A stretch of 32,000 nt of DNA from Cereibacter sphaeroides 2.4.1. GTDB lineage: Bacteria > Pseudomonadota > Alphaproteobacteria > Rhodobacterales > Rhodobacteraceae. The stretch is from NCBI RefSeq assembly GCF_000012905.2, contig NC_007493.2, positions 2,700,001-2,732,000 on the forward strand, given 5' to 3'. Below are positions 4,627 to 13,289 of this stretch, one piece after another. Under the pieces are notes generated by a model that saw only the letters and a list, made by a program, of their open reading frames with translations, had not been told where the DNA came from and ran no database searches. Each line of letters begins with the position of its first letter. The first letter of the stretch is position 1. The translations under genes and the position numbers were made by a program.

Positions 4627-4788
4627 ATGCCCGAAGTCTCAGAATTCGCCTTTCGCCTGATGATGGCCGCCGTCATCTTCGTCGGCGTCGGCATCATGTT
4701 CGCCTTCGCCGGCGGTCACTGGTTCGTGGGCCTCGTGGTGGGCGGCCTCGTCGCCGCCTTCTTCGCCGCGACCCCGAACAGCAACTGA
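4627..4788 (+). CDS. small hydrophobic protein, 53 aa, two predicted transmembrane helices (not in ORF track, below 60 aa)
   Basis: Hand translation gives [53 protein letters not shown], with TGA at 4786-4788. GAAGGAGG at 4614-4621 lies 5 nt before the ATG. Third codon positions are nearly all G/C. A hairpin terminator follows 60 nt downstream. Confidence 0.55.
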
Positions 4789-4848: not shown

Positions 4849-4883
4849 GGGCGCCGCCACGCAGCGGCGCCCTTTCCGTTTCC
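4849..4883. terminator. intrinsic terminator hairpin shared by convergent genes
   Basis: GGGCGCCGC (4849-4857), loop CACGCA, GCGGCGCCC (4864-4872), then TTTCCGTTTCC on the + strand. It sits 60 nt after the small ORF stop and 20 nt after the minus-strand stop at 4892. Confidence 0.6.
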
Positions 4884-4891
4884 GGGGCAGT

Positions 4892-5776
4892 TCAGCCCGG
4901 GGGCAGCGGGATCACATCGACGGCGTGGCTCGTCCTCTGTCGGCCCGCGATGCGCAGGATGCCCGAGACCGGCGCCACATCGCCGTAATCCCGGCCGACG
5001 GCCGCCACGATATGATCGGCCCCCGCGAAACAGCGGTTGGTCGGATCGTAGTCGATCCAGCCCTCGGCCCGGCCGCACCAGGCCCGCACCCAGGCATGCA
5101 TCGCATCCGCCCCTTCGAGCCGCGGGCGGCCGGGCGGCGGCACCGTCCGGAGAAACCCCGAGACATAGGCCGCGGGCACGCCTGCGCCGCGCAGCCCCGC
5201 AATCATGATCTGGGCGAAATCCTGACAGACACCGTGGCGGTGGGCGAAGGCCTCCTCGGGGGGCGTGTCGACCGAGGTCGCACTGCCGTCGAACCGCATC
5301 TCGCGGTAAAGCCGCTGGCCCAGAGCCTCGACCGCGCCGCGCACCGTGGCGGCCCCCGCCATCGCCTCGCGCGCATGGTCGGTGATGGCCGTCACCGGGC
5401 GGATGCGGGGCGAGGCGGGCAGGAAATGGTGCGGCGCGGCGGGGCCCAGATCCCGCACCGCCGCGATCTCGGCGGCCAGCGCCGCGAGCGGGCCCGAACG
5501 GTCGGGGCCCGGCCCCTCGAACAGCCGGTCCACCCTGCAGGCGGCGGTGAAGACGATCTCGGAATGGTCGCAGCCGATGGCCACCTCGACCGTCCGGTTG
5601 CCGAAGAAATCGGTGAACTCGCCCCGCTCAGCCGGACGCGGGCTGATGGCGATCATGTCCTGCGACACCTCCTGCAGGCCCGGCAGATGCGCGGGCAGCA
5701 GCCGCAGCAGGTGCCGCCCCCCCGAGGCGGGCCGGGCATAATGGTAGGTGACGGAGAGGCGGACCTGATAGAGCAT
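4892..5776 (-). CDS. transglutaminase-like cysteine peptidase family protein (Bact_transglu_N + transglutaminase core), 294 aa
   Basis: Track ORF. The N-terminus MLYQVRLSVTYHYARP is typical of Bact_transglu_N. A Cys/His/Asp set occurs in family order: HGVCQDFAQ, AMHAWVRAW, IDYDPTN. The ATG (5776-5774) directly abuts the TGA (5779-5777) of the upstream gene. Confidence 0.9.
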   Translation of the reverse strand: MLYQVRLSVTYHYARPASGGRHLLRLLPAHLPGLQEVSQDMIAISPRPAERGEFTDFFGNRTVEVAIGCDHSEIVFTAACRVDRLFEGPGPDRSGPLAALAAEIAAVRDLGPAAPHHFLPASPRIRPVTAITDHAREAMAGAATVRGAVEALGQRLYREMRFDGSATSVDTPPEEAFAHRHGVCQDFAQIMIAGLRGAGVPAAYVSGFLRTVPPPGRPRLEGADAMHAWVRAWCGRAEGWIDYDPTNRCFAGADHIVAAVGRDYGDVAPVSGILRIAGRQRTSHAVDVIPLPPG

Positions 5777-8161
5777 TCAGCGCAGCCAGCTGTCGGTGAT
5801 GAGGTCGGAAATCTCCCAGATCGCGCCGCGCAGCGCCCAGAGCGCCTCGGTATCGAGCTGCTCGGCCCGTTCGGTGGCAAGGTTGGTGCGGGTGCGCAGG
5901 ACGAGCCGGAGGAGGTCGGGCATCGGGCTCGCCGTGGCGCCGGGCAGAAGGCGCACCTGCTCCTCGATCCCGTCGAGCTGGAACAGGATCGAGCGCGGGT
6001 TCATCGCATCGAGCGCCAGCAGGTCCACCACCGTCTCGCGCGAGGTGGTGACGGCGAAGCGGCGGCGGTGGGTCATGACGCTGTCGCCCACCTCGACCGC
6101 CAGATCGAGCCCGCCATCGGGCGCGAACGGATCGGCCAGCGTGGCCAGCACCGCGGCCATGCCCGCCCCCCGCTCGACATGGCGGCCGAGCTCGAGAAAG
6201 CGCCAGCCGGTCACGCGATACATGTTCTCATGCACGAGGCCCGAGAAGCCGGTGATCTTGCGCAGGAGCGCCGACAGGGCGCGGGCCGCGTCGTCGCCGG
6301 GGGCCACCCGCTCGGCCATGCGCCGCATCGTCTTGTCGAGATCGGCGAGCGAGGACCAGCCGTCGGGCGAGAAGCGGTCGCGCACCTGCCCCGCGCTCGC
6401 GATGGCCGAGCGCAGGGTCTGAATCAGACCCTTGGGAATGCCCTCCTCGGGATCCACCCCCTGCCCGCGGAAGAGGGGCGCCAGCGCCGCGAGAAGCGGC
6501 GCACTCGCATCGCCCGTCTCGGCCAGCCGCACGTTGCGCGCCCGCAGGAGCCGCATGAGGCCCTCGGTGCGCTCGACGTAGCGGCCGAGCCAGAAGAGAT
6601 TGTCGGCCGACCGCGAGGGCAGCGCGCCCTCGCGCGCCTGAAGCTGGCGGCCCTGGGCGGGGATGAGGCTCGCCGCCTCGACCGGGGTCTCGCTCACGAT
6701 CCAGACATCGGCCGCGGCACCGCCGTGCTGCATCGCCACGGCCCGCGGCTCCGGCGTGCGGCCGATCCGGGCGAAGCCGCCCGGCATGACCTGCCAGCCC
6801 GACGGGGTGCGGGCCAGAAACACCCGCAGGCTCATCGGGCGCGGCACCAGCGCGCCGCCGATATGGGCGGGCGTGGTCGAGAGCACCACCGACTCCTGCC
6901 CCACGAGGCCCGCCCCCTCGCGCTCGAGCCAGGCCACCGGATCGCGCGGCGCGGGGCAGCCTTCGGCCAGCGCCGCCAGATCGTCCTCGATCGGCTGCCG
7001 GGTCGAGAGCGCGGGCGAGATCAGCATCCGGGACACGTTGGCCGCGACATGGGCGCGCTCGGCCTTCTGTCCGCACCACCAGGTGGCGATGTTGGGCAGC
7101 CGCAGCTCCTCGCCCAGAAGCGCGCGGGCGATGCGCGGCATGAAGGCCAGAAAGGCGCGGGTCTCGAGCACGCCCGAGCCGAGATTGTTCACGAGCGTCG
7201 TCGATCCGTGGCGCAGCGCCGAGACGAGGCCCGGCGTGCCGAGCTGCGAGCCGCCCTCCAGCTCCAAGGGATCCGCATAGGCGCCGTCGAGCCTGCGCCA
7301 GAGCACCGACACGGGCTCCGGCCCCGCCACGGTGCGGACCTTGAGTTGACCGCTGTCAACCGTCAGATCCTCGCCCTGCAGCAGCATGAAGCCCAGATAG
7401 CGCGCGATCCAGGCGTGCTCGTAATAGGTCTCGTTCAGCGGCCCCGGCGTGAGGATGCCCACCCGCCCCTGCGGATCGGCCTGCCACTCCTGCAGCGCGT
7501 CGCGGAAGGTGCGGAAGAAGCCCGCCAGCCGGTGGACATGGGCCTCGGCATAGAAGTCCGAGAAGACGCGCGAGGTAGCAACCCGGTTCTCGAGCGCGAA
7601 GCCCGCGCCCGAGGGTGCCTGCGCCCGGTCGCCCAGCACCCACCAGTCGCCGTCCGGGCCGCGGCCCACCTCGAAGGCCAGGAAATGCAGATGATGCCCG
7701 CCGCGCGGCGCGATGCCCACCATCGGGCGCAGCCACTCGGGGTTGCCCGCCACCAGCGCGGCCGGCAGGACCCCCTCGGCCACCAGCCGGTTCGCGCCGT
7801 AGAGATCCGCCATCAGCGCCTCGAGCAGATCCGCGCGCTGGATCAGCCCTTCGCCCAGACGCTGCCATTCCGCCTCGTCGATCAGCACCGGCACATGGCT
7901 CAGCGGCCAGGCGCGCTCGTCCGAGCCTTCGGCGGAATACTGGCGGAAGAACACGCCCGCATCGCGCAGATACTGGTCGCCGCGGGCGAAGCGGCGGTGG
8001 AGATCGTCGGGCGAGAGCCCCGCCAGATGGCGCAGGAAGCCGCGCCAGACCGGGCGGATCCCGCCCGCCGCATCCATCATCTCGTCGGGCACGCCGGGCT
8101 GGGGCCGGTAGCCGTCGGCCAGTCCGGTCAGGCCCGGCGCGAGGCGCGTCTTCCGCTCCAT
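5777..8161 (-). CDS. circularly permuted type-2 ATP-grasp protein fused to an alpha-E domain, 794 aa
   Basis: Track ORF. The ATP-grasp body carries the family-typical GSGVLETRAFLAFMPRIARALLGEELRLPNIATWWCGQ. The C-terminal third has the alpha-E signature LPSRSADNLFWLGRYVERTEG. The start ATG shares nt 8161 with the upstream stop (TGATG). Confidence 0.9.
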   Translation of the reverse strand: MERKTRLAPGLTGLADGYRPQPGVPDEMMDAAGGIRPVWRGFLRHLAGLSPDDLHRRFARGDQYLRDAGVFFRQYSAEGSDERAWPLSHVPVLIDEAEWQRLGEGLIQRADLLEALMADLYGANRLVAEGVLPAALVAGNPEWLRPMVGIAPRGGHHLHFLAFEVGRGPDGDWWVLGDRAQAPSGAGFALENRVATSRVFSDFYAEAHVHRLAGFFRTFRDALQEWQADPQGRVGILTPGPLNETYYEHAWIARYLGFMLLQGEDLTVDSGQLKVRTVAGPEPVSVLWRRLDGAYADPLELEGGSQLGTPGLVSALRHGSTTLVNNLGSGVLETRAFLAFMPRIARALLGEELRLPNIATWWCGQKAERAHVAANVSRMLISPALSTRQPIEDDLAALAEGCPAPRDPVAWLEREGAGLVGQESVVLSTTPAHIGGALVPRPMSLRVFLARTPSGWQVMPGGFARIGRTPEPRAVAMQHGGAAADVWIVSETPVEAASLIPAQGRQLQAREGALPSRSADNLFWLGRYVERTEGLMRLLRARNVRLAETGDASAPLLAALAPLFRGQGVDPEEGIPKGLIQTLRSAIASAGQVRDRFSPDGWSSLADLDKTMRRMAERVAPGDDAARALSALLRKITGFSGLVHENMYRVTGWRFLELGRHVERGAGMAAVLATLADPFAPDGGLDLAVEVGDSVMTHRRRFAVTTSRETVVDLLALDAMNPRSILFQLDGIEEQVRLLPGATASPMPDLLRLVLRTRTNLATERAEQLDTEALWALRGAIWEISDLITDSWLR

Positions 8162-11100
8162 CAGAGCCCCGCGGGCCGTCTCAGGTCGAGCGTCATCGGA
8201 AACTCCGGATGCGGCCGCTCGGGCGCGAGCGGCCAGAGGCCGGCACTGTGCCCGTGGGGCTGGAAGCGCGCAAGCCTACGCGCCTCGGCCTCGTTGCCGT
8301 TCACCGGGAAGGTCTCGTAGTTGCGCCCGCCGGGATGGGCTACATGATAGACGCAGCCGCCGAGCGACCGGCCCGACCAAGTGTCGTAGATGTCGAAGGT
8401 GAGCGGCGCATCGACGGGCAGGGTCGGATGCAGCGCCGCGGCGGGCTGCCAGGCCTTGAACCGCACCCCCGCCACCGCGCGGCCATTGGCCACCGGCACG
8501 AGCGGCACCTCGCGCCCGTTGCAGGCCACTCGGTAGCGCGCGGGATCGGCGCCCGAGAGCGTCACCTGCAGCCGCTCGGTCGAGCTGTCGGTGTAGCGCA
8601 CCGTCCCCCCGATGGCGCCGGTCTCGCCCAGCACATGCCATGGCTCGAGCGCCTGCCGGATCTCGAGATGCGCGCCCTCGTAGGTCACCTCGCCGCAGAA
8701 GGGGAAGCGGAACTCGGCCTGCGCCCGGAACCATTCCGGGTCGAGATCGAACCCGTGCGCCCGCAGATCGGCCAAGACGTCCAGGAAATCCTCCCAGACG
8801 TAGTGCTGGAGCATGAAACGGTCGTGCAGCGCTGTGCCCCAGCGGGTGAGCGGCCCCGTCACCGGGTTCTGCCACATGCGCGCGATGAGGGCGCGGATCA
8901 GAAGCTGCTGGGCGAGGCTCATGCGCGGGTCGGGCGGCATCTCGAAGCCGCGGAACTCGACGAGGCCGAGCCGCCCGGTGGGCCCGTCTGGCGAGAACAT
9001 CTTGTCGATGCAGATCTCGGCGCGGTGGGTGTTGCCGGTCACGTCGGTCAGGATGTTGCGCAGGAGCCGGTCGGGCAGCCAGAGCGGCGCGCGCGGATCG
9101 CCGGGACCGGGGATCTGCGACAGCGCGATTTCGAGCTCGTAGAGGCTGTCGTGGCGTGCCTCGTCGATGCGCGGCGCCTGACTGGTCGGGCCGATGAAGA
9201 GGCCCGAGAAGAGGTAGGAGAGCGACGGATGCCGGTTCCAGTGCAGGATCAGGCTGCGCAGCAGGTCCGGCCGCCGCAGGAAGGGCGAATCCGTGGGCGT
9301 GCGCCCGCCCACGACGACATGGTTGCCGCCGCCGGTGCCGCAATGCTTGCCGTCGATCATGAACTTGTCGGCGCCGAGGCGGCACTGGCGGGCCTCCTCG
9401 TAGACCGCCGTCGTGATCGACACGCACTCCTCCCAGCTGGTGGCGGGGTGGATGTTCACCTCGATCACGCCCGGATCGGGGGCCACGCGGATCACGTTCA
9501 GCCGCGGATCGTGCGGCGGCGCGTAGCCCTCGACATGGACCGGCAGGCCCAGCTTGCGCGCGGCCTCCTCGGCGGCGGTCAGGAGGTCGAGGTAATCCTC
9601 GACCGCCTCCACCGGCGGCATGAAGATGCAGAGCCGCCCGTCCCGCACCTCGACGGCGAGCGCGGTGCGCACGGCGCCCTCGTCGCCGAGGATCTGCTCG
9701 ACCATCGTCTGGCCCGGCGCCGAGGCGGTGAAGCTTGCCACCGCGGCATCGGGGGTCTGGAGCGGCACGATCTGCGCCTCGCCCGCGGGCGGCAGCGGCC
9801 CGCGCTCGACCGTGGGATCGGTCGGGTTGATGTAGGGGTAGCGCGAGGCCGGGATGTGGGGCAGCGCGCCCAGCGGCAGGCGGTAGCCCACCGGGCTGTC
9901 GCCGGGCACGAGGAACAGGTGCCTGCGCCGCAGCTTCCACCGCTCGGACCGCCAGCGCGGGCGGGGCGCCTGCGCCTGCCAGCGCTGCACCGGCAGGACG
10001 AAGCCCGAGGGCTCGGTCAAACCGCGCTCGAAGACGCGGGCCATGCGCAGCCGCTCTTCGGGGTCCTTCAGCTCCGAATTCTCGGGCGTCACATTTTCGG
10101 GAAGGTTCGCCTCCTTCAGAAGCCACTCGCCCGGATCCTCGTAGGCGGGCACCACGAGGTCTGGCTCGAGCCCGAGCTCGGCCGCGATGCCCTGCATCAG
10201 CCGCTCCGCCTCGGCCGGGCCCACACCGCCCTGCCCCGTCTCGCCCGCCACCAGCGCGCCGTCGCGCCAGATGGGCGCCCCGTCCTCGCGCCAGTAGAGC
10301 GAGAAGGTCCAGCGCGGCAGGGTCTCGCCCGGATACCATTTCCCCTGCCCGTAATGCAGGAAGCCCCCCGGCGCGAACCGGTCGCGGAGCCGCCGAATCA
10401 GCCGGTCGGCGAGGACGCGCTTGGTGGGGCCCACGGCATCGGTGTTCCACTCGCCCGATTCGAAATCGTCGATCGAGACGAAGGTGGGCTCGCCCCCCAT
10501 GGTGAGCCGCACGTCGCCCGCCCTCAGCGCCGCATCGACCCGGTGGCCCAGCGCATCGAGCCGCTGCCAGCTCTCGTCGGAAAAGGGTTTCGTGATCCGC
10601 GGATGCTCGGCCACGCGGGTCACCTTCATGTCGAAGGCGAAATCCACCTCGGCATAGCTCGCCATGCCGGCGATGGGGGCGGCGTTGCGGTAATGCGGGG
10701 TCGCGGCCAGCGGAATATGGCTCTCGCCCGTCAGAAGCCCCGAGGTGGCGTCGAGCCCGATCCAGCCCGCCCCCGGCAGATAGACCTCGGCCCAGGCATG
10801 GAGGTCGGTGAAATCGTGATCGGTCCCCGACGGCCCGTCCAGCGCCTCGAGATCGGGCTTGAGCTGGATCAGGTAGCCCGAGACGAAGCGGGCGGCGAGG
10901 CCAAGGTGGCGCAGGATCTGCACCTGAAGCCAGGCGCTGTCGCGGCACGAGCCGCGCCTCTGGGCCAGCGTCTCCTCGGGGCTGAAGACGCCGGGCTCCA
11001 TGCGGATCACATAGGCGATCTCGCGGGCGAGGCGCGCGTTCAGCCCCACCACCATGTCGACGGTCCGCTGCCGGTCGCGCGGGATCGTCTGAAGGAAGGC

Positions 11101-11484
11101 CTGAAGATGCGGCCCCGCAGGTTCGGGGCTGCGGTAGATCGAGAGATCCTCGACAATCTCCTCGGGATAGTCGAAGGGCCAGTGCTCGGCCGTCTCCTCG
11201 ACGAAGAAGTCGAACGGGTTGTAGACCGTCATGTCGGCCACCAGATCGACCTCGATGCGGAACTCGATCACCGGCTCGGGAAAGACCACGCGCAGCAGCC
11301 AGTTGCCGTAGGGATCCTGCTGATGATTCTCGAAATGCCCCCCCGGCGAGACCTTCAGCGCATGCGAGATCACCCGCGTGCGGGAATGGGGCGCGGGGCG
11401 CAGGCGGATCAGCTGCGGCCCGAGCGTCACCGGACGGTCGTAGCGGTAGTGGGTCAGGTGGTGAATGCTCGCCTTGATCGACAT
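8161..11484 (-). CDS. large transglutaminase-family protein with C-terminal DUF2126 (putative amidoligase) region, 1107 aa
   Basis: Internal start [19 protein letters not shown] of track ORF 8161..11688, with ATG at 11484-11482 and AAGGAA 8 nt upstream. Transglutaminase-core residues are [18 protein letters not shown] and GLDATSG, followed by about 700 aa of DUF2126-type sequence. Confidence 0.9.
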
Positions 11485-11717
11485 GTCGCGCGTTCCTTGC
11501 CCGGTCCGGTCGACGGTTTCACGCATCGCGGCAGGCTGCCAATGGCCCATCGCCCGGGCGCGGCGAAAAAACCGGCGGCGCGGGGCGGAGCGCCCAAATC
11601 CTGTGCGTCCGCGCCCGAGAGGCCGGGGCCGCACCCGCGCAAGGCGGCGGGGGCCCCCCGGCCGGCCGGGGACCAGCCGCACCCGCAAGATGGGGGGTGC
11701 GGCCCCGGGCGACCGCC

Positions 11718-13289
11718 CTACTTGCGGGTGATGCGGCCCTCGATCACCGGCGTGTAGGGGGCATGGGCCACCAGATAGTCCGCCGTCACATCGGCGAGGT
11801 CCGGGCCGAAGTCATAGGCATTGGCCGCATCGACGAACATGGCAAAGCCGTCGCCGCCCTGACGGACATAGTTGTTGGACACGACGCCATAGGTTTTGGC
11901 GAGATCGATGGGCTGCCAGCCGCCCTCCTCCATCACCATCACGTCCGAGATGCGCGCGCCCACCGGCGCCGCCGGGTCGAAAGCATATTTCAGCCCGGCC
12001 ACCTGCGCGAAGCGGCCCGCCCCCTCCTCGAGCTCGCTCACCCCGTTCTCGAGCGCCGCCACCACGGCCTCGCCCTTGACCTGAAAGGTCGAGAGCGTGT
12101 TCTGGAACGGCAGCACGGTCAGCACGTCGCCCATGGTGACCGTGCCCGCATCGATCGAGGCGCGCAGCCCGCCTCCATTGGAAATCGCGATCTGGATGCC
12201 CTGATCGCGCACCCGGTCGAGCATCGCATCGGACACGAGATTGCCCATCGCGCATTCGCCGCTGCGGCAGCTCTCGCGCGAGCCGTCGATGGGCGCGCTG
12301 ACCTCGGCCACCACGCGCGAGCGGATCTCTTCCAGCGGCGCCGCCAGTTCCTTCACCCGCGCAACCGTCGCCTCATCCTCGGCCACGGAGGCGTCGAGCA
12401 GCATCGGCGCGCCCTCGGCCGAGACGATCCTGCCCGCATCGTCGAAGGTGACGTTCAGCTCGCCCAGATACTTGCCATAGGCATAGGCGGTCACGATCGC
12501 CACATCGCCCACCATGGTGGGATAGGGGCCGGCCGCCGCCCCATCCTCGTTCGACAGAAGCGTGTGGGAATGGCCGCCCACGATCACATCGACATTCTTC
12601 AGCGCCGAAGCGATCTCCTTGTCGGCCTCGTAGCCCAGATGCGAGAGCAGCACGATCTTCGTCACCCCCTCGTCCGTCAGCCGGTCCACCTCGGCCTGTG
12701 CGGCCTGCACCGGCTCGGTGAAGATCACGTTCGGCCCCGGGCTCGCGAGTTCCGCCGTGTCGAGCGGCGTCAGCCCCACGATGCCGATCTTCTCGCCGCC
12801 CTTCTCGACCACCACCGACTTCTGCAGCTCGGCCCGCAGCCCGGGCTCGCCGGTCAGATCGGCATTGGCCATCAGAAGCGGCGCCTCGAGCTTTCTCGCG
12901 AAGTCGGTCAGCACGGCGGGGCCGTCGTCGAATTCGTGGTTGCCCACCGTCATGGCGTCGTAATCGAGCGCATTCATGAATTCGGCCGCCAGCTCGCCCT
13001 TGTAGCGCGAATAGAACAGCGAGCCCTGGAACTGGTCGCCCGCATCCACGAGAAGCCGCGTTCCGCCCTGCCCGCGCGCCTCGGAAATCGCCGTCACCAG
13101 CCGCGCGATGCCCCCGAAACATTCGCCCGCCGTATTGTCCTCTGGCGGACAGGTCGAATCGTATTTCGAGATCGGCTCGAACCGGTCGTGGAAATCGTTC
13201 GTGTGCAGGATGGTGAGCGCGAAGTCGGCCCGCGCCGCGCCCGTGGTCAGCGCCACCAGCGCCGCCGAGGCGAGAAGGGTGGATTTCAT
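11718..13289 (-). CDS. bifunctional metallophosphatase/5'-nucleotidase, secreted or periplasmic (523 aa)
   Basis: Internal start [21 protein letters not shown] (signal peptide) of track ORF 11718..13397, with ATG at 13289 and GGGAG upstream. Calcineurin-like motifs are [16 protein letters not shown] and GNHEFD, followed by a C-terminal 5'-nucleotidase domain. Confidence 0.9.

Follow-up and report, generated by a model that had tools for sequence, protein, structure and literature searches.

Iyer et al. (Biol Direct 2008, PMC2588565) described a predicted amidoligase/peptidase system typified by Mycobacterium tuberculosis Rv2566 and its neighbors. Three contiguous genes, here called P1, P2, and P3, from a 32,000-nucleotide (nt) stretch of the Cereibacter sphaeroides 2.4.1 genome (contig NC_007493.2, positions 2,700,001 to 2,732,000; hereafter the window) form a typical member of this system that differs from it in nothing substantive. 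Profile analysis assigned Rv2566-type proteins, and with them the DUF2126 domain, to a superfamily of carboxylate-amine ligases in which PafA and Dop are also found, and the authors, like us, found no Pup-like open reading frame (ORF) (PMC2588565). What we add is the universal fusion of the ATP-grasp and Alpha-E domains in this cassette, the coupling of P2 to P3, the invariance of the catalytic signatures, the fold neighbors of the ligases, the lack of a fourth partner, and a link to nitrogen drawn from the literature. The same predicted amidoligase/peptidase system was reportedly also presented by Iyer, Abhiman, Burroughs, and Aravind in Mol Biosyst in 2009. The interpretation given in the initial annotation largely restates the accounts of 2008 and 2009, to which it adds nothing, and the cassette is already described and not a new finding. 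At a probability of about 0.4, we read the operon as encoding a cytoplasmic pathway of two ligases and two amidases/transamidases for a small gamma-glutamyl-type conjugate, which would, by analogy with related clusters, probably operate under nitrogen limitation.

Four other described systems invite comparison. The Anbu operon shares three of its four component families with the window operon, is induced by nitrogen starvation, as reported for Pseudomonas putida PP_2685-2688 (PMC8050072, PMC3325844, PMC6376114), and is joined to the present type in five-gene clusters of gammaproteobacteria; in contrast, the window has no Anbu gene, the ATP-grasp and Alpha-E domains are fused here, and the 1107-residue P1 giant contributes a further ligase and a further transglutaminase. 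Among giant-containing clusters, we found regulation defined by experiment only for I35_5080-83 (BCAM1233-1236) in Burkholderia cenocepacia H111, which is NtrC- and sigma-54-dependent under nitrogen limitation, with tabulated values of -6.0 to -9.4 in an ntrC mutant, and which is annotated as a circularly permuted ATP-grasp protein, an Alpha-E protein, a transglutaminase, and a “large transglutaminase-like protein” (PMC5491218). This cluster differs in its gene order, in its split ATP-grasp and Alpha-E genes, and in its host, a betaproteobacterium with a sigma-54-dependent NtrC. Pupylation (PafA, Dop, and Pup) relies on a ligase of the superfamily to which DUF2126 was assigned and likewise combines ligation with a deconjugating activity, but Dop is a marginal fold match here (E = 0.5), and the hydrolase of the window operon is a separate papain-fold domain. 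The genes that define the Anbu operon and pupylation are both missing: no proteasome-family/Anbu gene (PF00227) and no AAA partner was found anywhere in the window, and no Pup-like or precursor ORF, nor any conserved small ORF, in or beside the operon. The pathways of glutathione, glutathionylspermidine, and trypanothione resemble the predicted chemistry of the operon in combining a glutamine synthetase (GS)-fold gamma-glutamyl ligase with a permuted ATP-grasp ligase and in pairing a synthetase with a papain-like cysteine amidase. The ligase/amidase pairing is thus analogous to glutathionylspermidine or trypanothione synthetase-amidase, and the two-ligase logic to GshA plus GshB, although this likeness is one of analogy and distant fold similarity (10-14% identity), and Alpha-E has no counterpart there. 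The amidase domain of the glutathionylspermidine and trypanothione enzymes is CHAP-like, in contrast to the transglutaminase fold predicted here.

P1, P2, and P3 occupy the minus strand (Table 1) of a window with a G+C content of about 70%, and all three are real genes as judged from their third-position G+C (0.88-0.90 each), which is typical for this genome. P1 and P2 are each 99% identical to a database protein, from Cereibacter sphaeroides and Cereibacter, respectively. The P1 stop codon and the P2 start codon share a TGATG at 8161, and the P3 ATG abuts the P2 TGA with zero spacing; these junctions and the gene coordinates, as given in the initial annotation, proved exact against the ORF list and the sequence. 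An AAGGAA motif lies 5′ of the P1 ATG (11484). P1, P2, and P3 are best read as a single self-contained operon with translational coupling. In a reading of the translations made without a predictor, none of the three N termini resembles a signal peptide or an anchor in the membrane.

The organization of the cassette was then compared across genomes. One genome per species was scanned and the best 80 loci were kept, to which one Mesorhizobium locus was added; 73 loci were informative in that they carried enough sequence downstream of P1. The set spans alpha- and gammaproteobacteria, a deltaproteobacterial metagenome-assembled genome (MAG), Nitrospirales, and Acidobacteriota, and the P1 family, clustered at 50%, comprises 12,431 clusters at E ≤ 1e-3 and 2,845 at E ≤ 1e-30. 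The order P1-P2-P3 on one strand was found in 64 of the 73 loci, and the ATP-grasp and Alpha-E domains were fused in all 64; both traits extend from Proteobacteria to Acidobacteriota and a Nitrospirales MAG. Between P2 and P3, the median gap is 3 nt, and 26/64 loci show a 4-nt ATGA overlap; between P1 and P2, the median is about 20 nt with a tail reaching about 1 kb. P1 keeps 76-79% identity over its full length (about 1,100 residues) in Rhodobacterales, Hyphomicrobiales, and Rhodospirillales, which argues for a conserved, universal substrate; the corresponding value for P2 is 64-72%. The flanks of the cassette vary among genomes, and all-against-all clustering of the flanking ORFs in 82 loci revealed no conserved fourth gene and no association with a transporter or a deaminase. 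The initial annotation had proposed such a survey and had seen no precursor peptide gene inside the operon; the survey returned the conserved order and no recurrent partner or peptide gene, in line with that observation. Its further statement that ATP-grasp and Alpha-E are separate genes in many genomes holds for Anbu-type and some gammaproteobacterial clusters but not for this cassette.

The first of the two predicted ligases is the DUF2126 part of P1, which matches its Pfam profile over the full length (E = 0, 1320 bits, profile positions 3-826 of 826). In an AlphaFold2 model of P1 of medium quality, with a predicted local distance difference test score (pLDDT) of 68.8 and a predicted template modeling score (pTM) of 0.63, the best Foldseek match of this part in the PDB was Escherichia coli YbdK (1r8g), a GCS2-type carboxylate-amine ligase (E = 0.01, probability of 0.97, template modeling [TM] score of just 0.34). 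GS, gamma-glutamylmethylamide synthetase, and Dop gave weaker matches than YbdK. The DUF2126 region carries a conserved set of residues (E332, E387, E652, E675, N677, H722, R772, E775, H820, R821, E823, E843, R845, and E848), and these Glu, His, Arg, and Asn residues are retained by members of the main family as distant as 42% identity and lost in a divergent subfamily. They are candidate metal or ATP ligands. The Foldseek result agrees with the published profile assignment, but sequence-profile searches here did not confirm it, so membership of DUF2126 in the GS/GCS2/PafA-Dop carboxylate-amine ligase superfamily is likely but not proven.

The second ligase, the permuted ATP-grasp half of P2, is better resolved structurally, the AlphaFold2 model of P2 being good (pLDDT of 84.5, pTM of 0.82). 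Its closest match in the PDB, both by sequence (E = 1.8e-63) and by Foldseek (E = 1e-27, TM score of 0.85), is 3n6x, a structural-genomics entry labeled “putative glutathionylspermidine synthase.” Next come eukaryote-type glutathione and homoglutathione synthetases (E = 1e-10 to 1e-7) and trypanothione synthetase-amidase (E = 7e-5), and the fold neighbors also include Cp1B, a ligase of the fungal E-64 pathway; the characterized members among these neighbors all ligate small molecules. The Alpha-E half of P2 is modeled as helical and carries two ER motifs that 68-69 of 69 orthologues retain; Foldseek found no significant fold match for it in the PDB (best E > 0.28).

Each ligase is accompanied by a predicted thiol enzyme. 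P3 matches Bact_transglu_N (E = 3.3e-18) and Transglut_core (E = 7e-17), with PF01841 scores of 62.1 bits for P3 and 58.3 bits for P1 against a cut-off of 23. The N-terminal 275 residues of P1 are paralogous to P3 (27% identity, E = 2e-17), with C180, H229, and D245 in register, and C184, H227, and D244 of P3 align with the conserved Cys, His, and Asp of TgpA from Pseudomonas aeruginosa (6g49), a protein-glutamine gamma-glutamyltransferase, and of the Cytophaga protein 3isr. By Foldseek, the P1 N terminus matched 3isr at E = 1e-10 and TgpA at E = 6e-5; among transglutaminases of solved structure, these two are the nearest relatives. In orthologues drawn from 81 genomic loci, both triads are without exception conserved (65/65 for P3 and 81/81 for P1). 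The P1 N terminus and P3 are therefore predicted to be papain-fold thiol enzymes of the transglutaminase-like superfamily. At the level of domains, the proposal of the initial annotation that the operon holds two ATP-dependent amide-ligase modules and two Cys/His/Asp thiol modules is thus borne out by profile searches, triad alignment, fold matches, and gene order: Pfam returned all five families that it had predicted (Bact_transglu_N, Transglut_core, DUF2126, CP_ATPgrasp_2, and Alpha-E), the Cys/His/Asp sets of P1 and P3 align with those of solved relatives, and all of the peptide motifs that it had quoted, including IDYDPTN, occur in the P1-P3 translations. NCBIfam gave zero matches for P1, P2, and P3. 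That the modules act as one complex, as the initial annotation also proposed, is a conjecture, and the sole published pull-down on the related Anbu operon detected no stable partners; peptidase assays on that operon were also negative, and its function is described as unconfirmed (PMC6376114).

What the cassette builds or trims is a matter of pure inference. We favor a small-conjugate pathway because the ligases resemble small-molecule amide ligases and are each paired with a thiol enzyme, and because no tag, target, or protease gene accompanies them. Its substrate would be small and universally available, for example an amine, an amino acid, or a peptide of the gamma-glutamyl type, on which amide bonds would be made and unmade non-ribosomally. 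In a first step, the GS/GCS2-like DUF2126 module of P1 would use ATP to activate a carboxylate as an acyl-phosphate and form a first amide bond. The glutathione-synthetase-like ATP-grasp module of P2, aided by Alpha-E, would then form a second bond. The matching amidases or transamidases would be the papain-fold transglutaminase modules of P1, fused to the first ligase, and of P3, coupled to the second. The whole would, by analogy to related clusters, probably serve to scavenge or redistribute nitrogen when nitrogen is limiting.

Several observations weigh against a small-conjugate pathway. The P1 model has a pLDDT of 68.8 and its match to YbdK is weak (E = 0.01, TM score of 0.34); moreover, a profile of the P1 family retrieved transglutaminase domains only, and no GS or GCS2 protein, from the PDB sequences, and the DUF2126 part alone matched nothing besides DUF2126 in Pfam at E ≤ 10. 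In 9 of the 73 informative loci (L011, L014, L021, L031, L036, L040, L055, L061, and L079), an apparently intact P1 stands without a same-strand P2 or P3 within the approximately 5 to 8 kb searched downstream, so P1 can work without adjacent partners. In the literature that could be searched, we found no biochemical or genetic data that fix a substrate for the operon or its orthologues. The nitrogen component is also exposed. Nitrogen regulation of the alphaproteobacterial cassette is proposed by analogy with related clusters, and the identity of the Burkholderia “large transglutaminase-like protein” as a DUF2126 protein was deduced from its annotation name and not from its sequence. Across loci, the region upstream of P1 shows no overall enrichment of sigma-54-like sites (12/85 loci versus 31/340 controls), and a scan found none upstream of P1 in the window. 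An identical good sigma-54 site, TGGCATAAGTCTTGCG, does lie about 53 nt 5′ of P1 in both Pseudomonas kielensis (L080) and a gammaproteobacterial MAG (L072), which fits the nitrogen-limitation regulation of related clusters. Lastly, enzymes of the transglutaminase fold typically have proteins or peptides as substrates, and sister operons carry a proteasome-like Anbu gene; both points favor a protein or peptide substrate here.

These last two points equally suit the main rival, a tagging system, in which the GS-like ligase and the ATP-grasp ligase, the latter as in RimK, would add amino acids or a short non-ribosomal peptide tag to the side chains or termini of target proteins, the transglutaminases would remove or transfer them, and Alpha-E would recruit the targets. 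Tagging is one published hypothesis for the Anbu operon (PMC6376114), and it would agree with the superfamily shared by DUF2126 with PafA and Dop (PMC2588565), with the weak Dop fold match, and with the transglutaminases TgpA and 3isr as closest solved relatives, since enzymes of this fold usually act on protein glutamine or lysine. We nonetheless consider it somewhat unlikely. The operon has no Pup-like small ORF in or beside it and no conserved target or protease gene adjoining it, for each of the two ligases the nearest fold matches are enzymes that join small molecules, and Dop falls far below YbdK. Furthermore, the proteins of the Yersinia bercovieri Anbu operon showed no stable interactions in pull-down experiments (PMC6376114). 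In a tag-gene-free version operating under nitrogen stress, the ligases would build a short non-ribosomal tag, for instance a gamma-glutamyl one, directly on proteins selected by Alpha-E, and the transglutaminases would erase or transfer it. This version, which we judge unlikely, would if true be a bacterial counterpart of polyglutamylation or of pupylation without a Pup gene. A neighboring possibility is that the cassette makes an as yet undiscovered gamma-glutamyl metabolite that would rival glutathione or mycothiol in importance.

Catabolic nitrogen salvage is quite improbable. Here the transglutaminases would deamidate or hydrolyze glutamine, gamma-glutamyl compounds, or peptides, setting free ammonia or amino acids, and the ligases would recapture the nitrogen in a salvage cycle that yields no dedicated product. 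Relatives of the operon are indeed induced by nitrogen limitation, ammonia release by transglutaminase has been discussed (PMC6376114), and GS-like enzymes assimilate ammonia or amines; however, a cycle in which two ATP-consuming ligases are fused or coupled to hydrolases would be costly, the cassette has no transporter or deaminase associated with it, and the window has no sigma-54 site.

Published data on relatives raise a further alternative. Rv2569c, a small transglutaminase of M. tuberculosis and putative P3 orthologue, was reported to be a surface protease that cleaves E-cadherin, with an activity blocked by 4-(2-aminoethyl)benzenesulfonyl fluoride (AEBSF) and phenylmethylsulfonyl fluoride (PMSF) and not by E-64 or N-ethylmaleimide (NEM), and the report leaves the operon unaddressed (PMC11081392). 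P3-type proteins would then be exported and serve as general proteases, with proteins of the host or outside the cell as targets, and the operon would not be one pathway. This is very improbable for the window operon: the P3 translation has no obvious signal peptide or membrane segment, C. sphaeroides is free-living, P3 is translationally coupled to a predicted cytoplasmic ligase in nearly all genomes, and the inhibitor profile does not fit the invariant Cys/His/Asp site. Since serine-protease inhibitors and not E-64 block it, the Rv2569c activity may not stem from the cysteine site. Among the other neighbors, Rv2567 was expressed and makes no gamma-aminobutyric acid (GABA)-trehalose. The earlier statement that no substrate, product, or phenotype has been shown for this domain set therefore stands in part: no substrate or product of the cassette is reported in the papers that could be searched, more than 15 years after the prediction, but the Rv2569c protease report, the Rv2567 test, and the nitrogen-limitation regulation of relatives, the single clue on which the literature is consistent, do exist. 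An anti-phage or conflict system on a mobile island, which the variable flanks might suggest, is effectively excluded by zero PADLOC matches for P1, P2, and P3, the very high conservation, the vertical-looking distribution, the native base composition, and the lack of adjacent mobility genes.

The cassette matters beyond C. sphaeroides, as it occurs in model organisms, according to the literature in M. tuberculosis and Burkholderia, and was seen here in Pseudomonas (L080). Identifying what it makes would uncover a new metabolite pathway or else a new protein modification, with a probable tie to nitrogen starvation. With its tractable genetics and the cassette in its minimal form of three genes, C. 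sphaeroides offers a good place for experiments on this orphan pathway. Two literature leads were set aside during this work: the transglutaminase-like genes RSP_2417 and RSP_3180 of Rhodobacter sphaeroides could not be tied to the locus and are probably other genes, and a Caulobacter NtrC paper concerns the unrelated gene hvyA.

Variant layouts were noted in several loci. A five-gene cluster consisting of a split circularly permuted ATP-grasp gene, an Alpha-E gene, the giant, a fused ATP-grasp/Alpha-E gene, and a small transglutaminase gene (about 7530..17040 in L084-L086) is present in Balneatrix alpica (L085), a gammaproteobacterium, as well as in two metagenomic contigs, and such clusters physically join the Anbu-type and DUF2126-type systems. 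In L086, a proteasome-family (Anbu-like) gene lies divergently upstream, and this is the one locus where such a gene was seen beside the cassette. In an Acidobacteriota locus (L078), second ATP-grasp and Alpha-E matches just 5′ of P1 suggest a five-gene layout. As for single loci, the P1 tblastn match of L031 is split over two frames, which suggests a frameshift, L082 has a solo giant, and L083 has a tandem pair of giants. In Cereibacter changlensis (L088), P2 is split in two frames (9352..10629 and 10560..11741) with no gene called; this is a frameshift, due either to a pseudogene or to a sequencing error.

A subfamily of divergent giants (P0270, P0276, P0284, P0290, P0308, and P0395) is 36-41% identical to P1. 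The catalytic Cys is lost in 4/5 aligned members and, by eye, in P0395, and most of the DUF2126 Glu and His residues are gone, so that the subfamily looks like a pseudoenzyme. In L083 (6651..13333), such a divergent giant lies directly 3′ of a second giant with a 4-nt overlap, and no ATP-grasp or small transglutaminase gene is nearby; this arrangement hints at an active/inactive pair.

Several candidate genes around the operon were rejected. Long antisense ORFs over the operon are a trap for naive gene calling: plus-strand ORFs 7615..11757 (1380 residues, with a translation rich in Arg, Gly, and Pro) and 4925..8320 (1131 residues) were discarded as high-G+C shadow ORFs, as both fail the third-position G+C filter that P1, P2, and P3 all pass. 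Recurring clusters among the flanking ORFs were likewise rejected as a fourth partner, since they consisted of shadow ORFs in the operon, generic LysR, ABC, and RND families, and an antisense artefact. The neighboring 5′-nucleotidase, M20 peptidase, AttH, and response-regulator genes reflect local Cereibacter synteny only, the sole exception being a 31%-identical 5′-nucleotidase match in L085. The window neighbors of the operon, namely, otsA/otsB, an M20/M28 peptidase gene, a 5′-nucleotidase gene, pyrD, an AsnC-type protein gene, a RecD-like helicase gene, and the mdh-sucCDAB-lpd cluster, are unrelated housekeeping genes.

Table 1. Coordinates of the operon, its predicted domains, and its flanking elements in the window
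Feature	Position	Strand	Description
P1	8161..11484	-	1107-residue giant; N-terminal transglutaminase-like module plus DUF2126 putative amidoligase; Cys180/His229/Asp245 intact
P1 Bact_transglu_N	11236..11469	-	Residues 6-83; PF08379, E = 1e-25
P1 Transglut_core	10747..11073	-	Residues 138-246, with Cys/His/Asp triad; PF01841, E = 1e-15
P1 DUF2126 region	8179..10653	-	Residues 278-1102; PF09899; putative carboxylate-amine ligase, likely glutamine-synthetase/GCS2-like fold
P2	5777..8161	-	794 residues; circularly permuted ATP-grasp fused to Alpha-E; start overlaps P1 stop
P2 CP_ATPgrasp_2	6764..7891	-	Residues 91-466; Pfam E = 3.5e-128
P2 Alpha-E	5783..6622	-	Residues 514-793, all-helical; PF04168 (COG2307), E = 1.6e-53; ER motifs R527/E530/R531 and E663/R664
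P3	4892..5776	-	294-residue stand-alone transglutaminase-like protein (Bact_transglu_N plus Transglut_core); Cys184/His227/Asp244; ATG abuts P2 stop
Hairpin 3′ of P3	4848..4873	.	G+C-rich perfect hairpin, 11-bp G+C stem
Leader of operon	11485..11576	-	Promoter-proximal; blocks GGGCGAT-GGCCATTGGCA and CGTGAAACCGTCG
Hairpin upstream of leader	11577..11594	-	Terminator-like hairpin plus T-run (GCCGGTTTTTT), between 5′-nucleotidase gene and P1

The operon is bordered by hairpins on both sides. The initial annotation had placed a hairpin terminator at 4849-4872, downstream of P3. The hairpin itself is real and extends one nucleotide further on each side, its 71-nt context folding at -41.5 kcal/mol (z = -5.2), but the T-tail on the operon strand is weak (UGUGAUCUUCUGG), and a terminator consensus scan scored the element on the plus strand. 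A plus-strand ORF of 53 residues with two hydrophobic segments (4627..4788), which has no homologue among 89 related loci, lies between P3 and the M20/M28 peptidase gene and is convergent with the operon. Because the plus-strand T-tail is better and this ORF ends just before the hairpin, the latter probably terminates transcription in both directions, serving this ORF as well as the operon.

On the other side, neither a consensus sigma-70 site nor a sigma-54 site was found 5′ of P1 in the window. Alignment shows that both blocks of the leader are kept in three other Cereibacter/Rhodobacter genomes despite a different upstream gene. The T-rich tract of the upstream hairpin is partly kept in relatives, and this hairpin would separate the operon from the upstream 5′-nucleotidase transcript. 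With a terminator-like hairpin upstream and about 100 nt of conserved leader, the operon therefore appears to be a unit served by a promoter region of its own.

The spacer between the 5′-nucleotidase gene and P1 differs among close relatives. In the window, it spans only 233 nt (11485..11717), and the strain has no response-regulator gene there. Rhodobacter sp. strains CZR27 and NSM carry a response-regulator gene of about 300 codons between the same two genes (4951..5868 in L087 and 4947..5855 in L089), and C. changlensis has a histidine kinase gene and response-regulator genes 5′ of P1. The distal part of the window spacer (11614..11712) is dense in G+C-rich repeats, with a perfect 14-nt inverted repeat (11623-11636/11695-11708), a 9-bp hairpin (11676-11684/11695-11703), and a 35-nt direct repeat (11628-11662/11676-11710). 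These repeats could be a stack of terminators, or else a scar or a repetitive extragenic palindromic (REP)-like element at the place where relatives carry the response-regulator gene.

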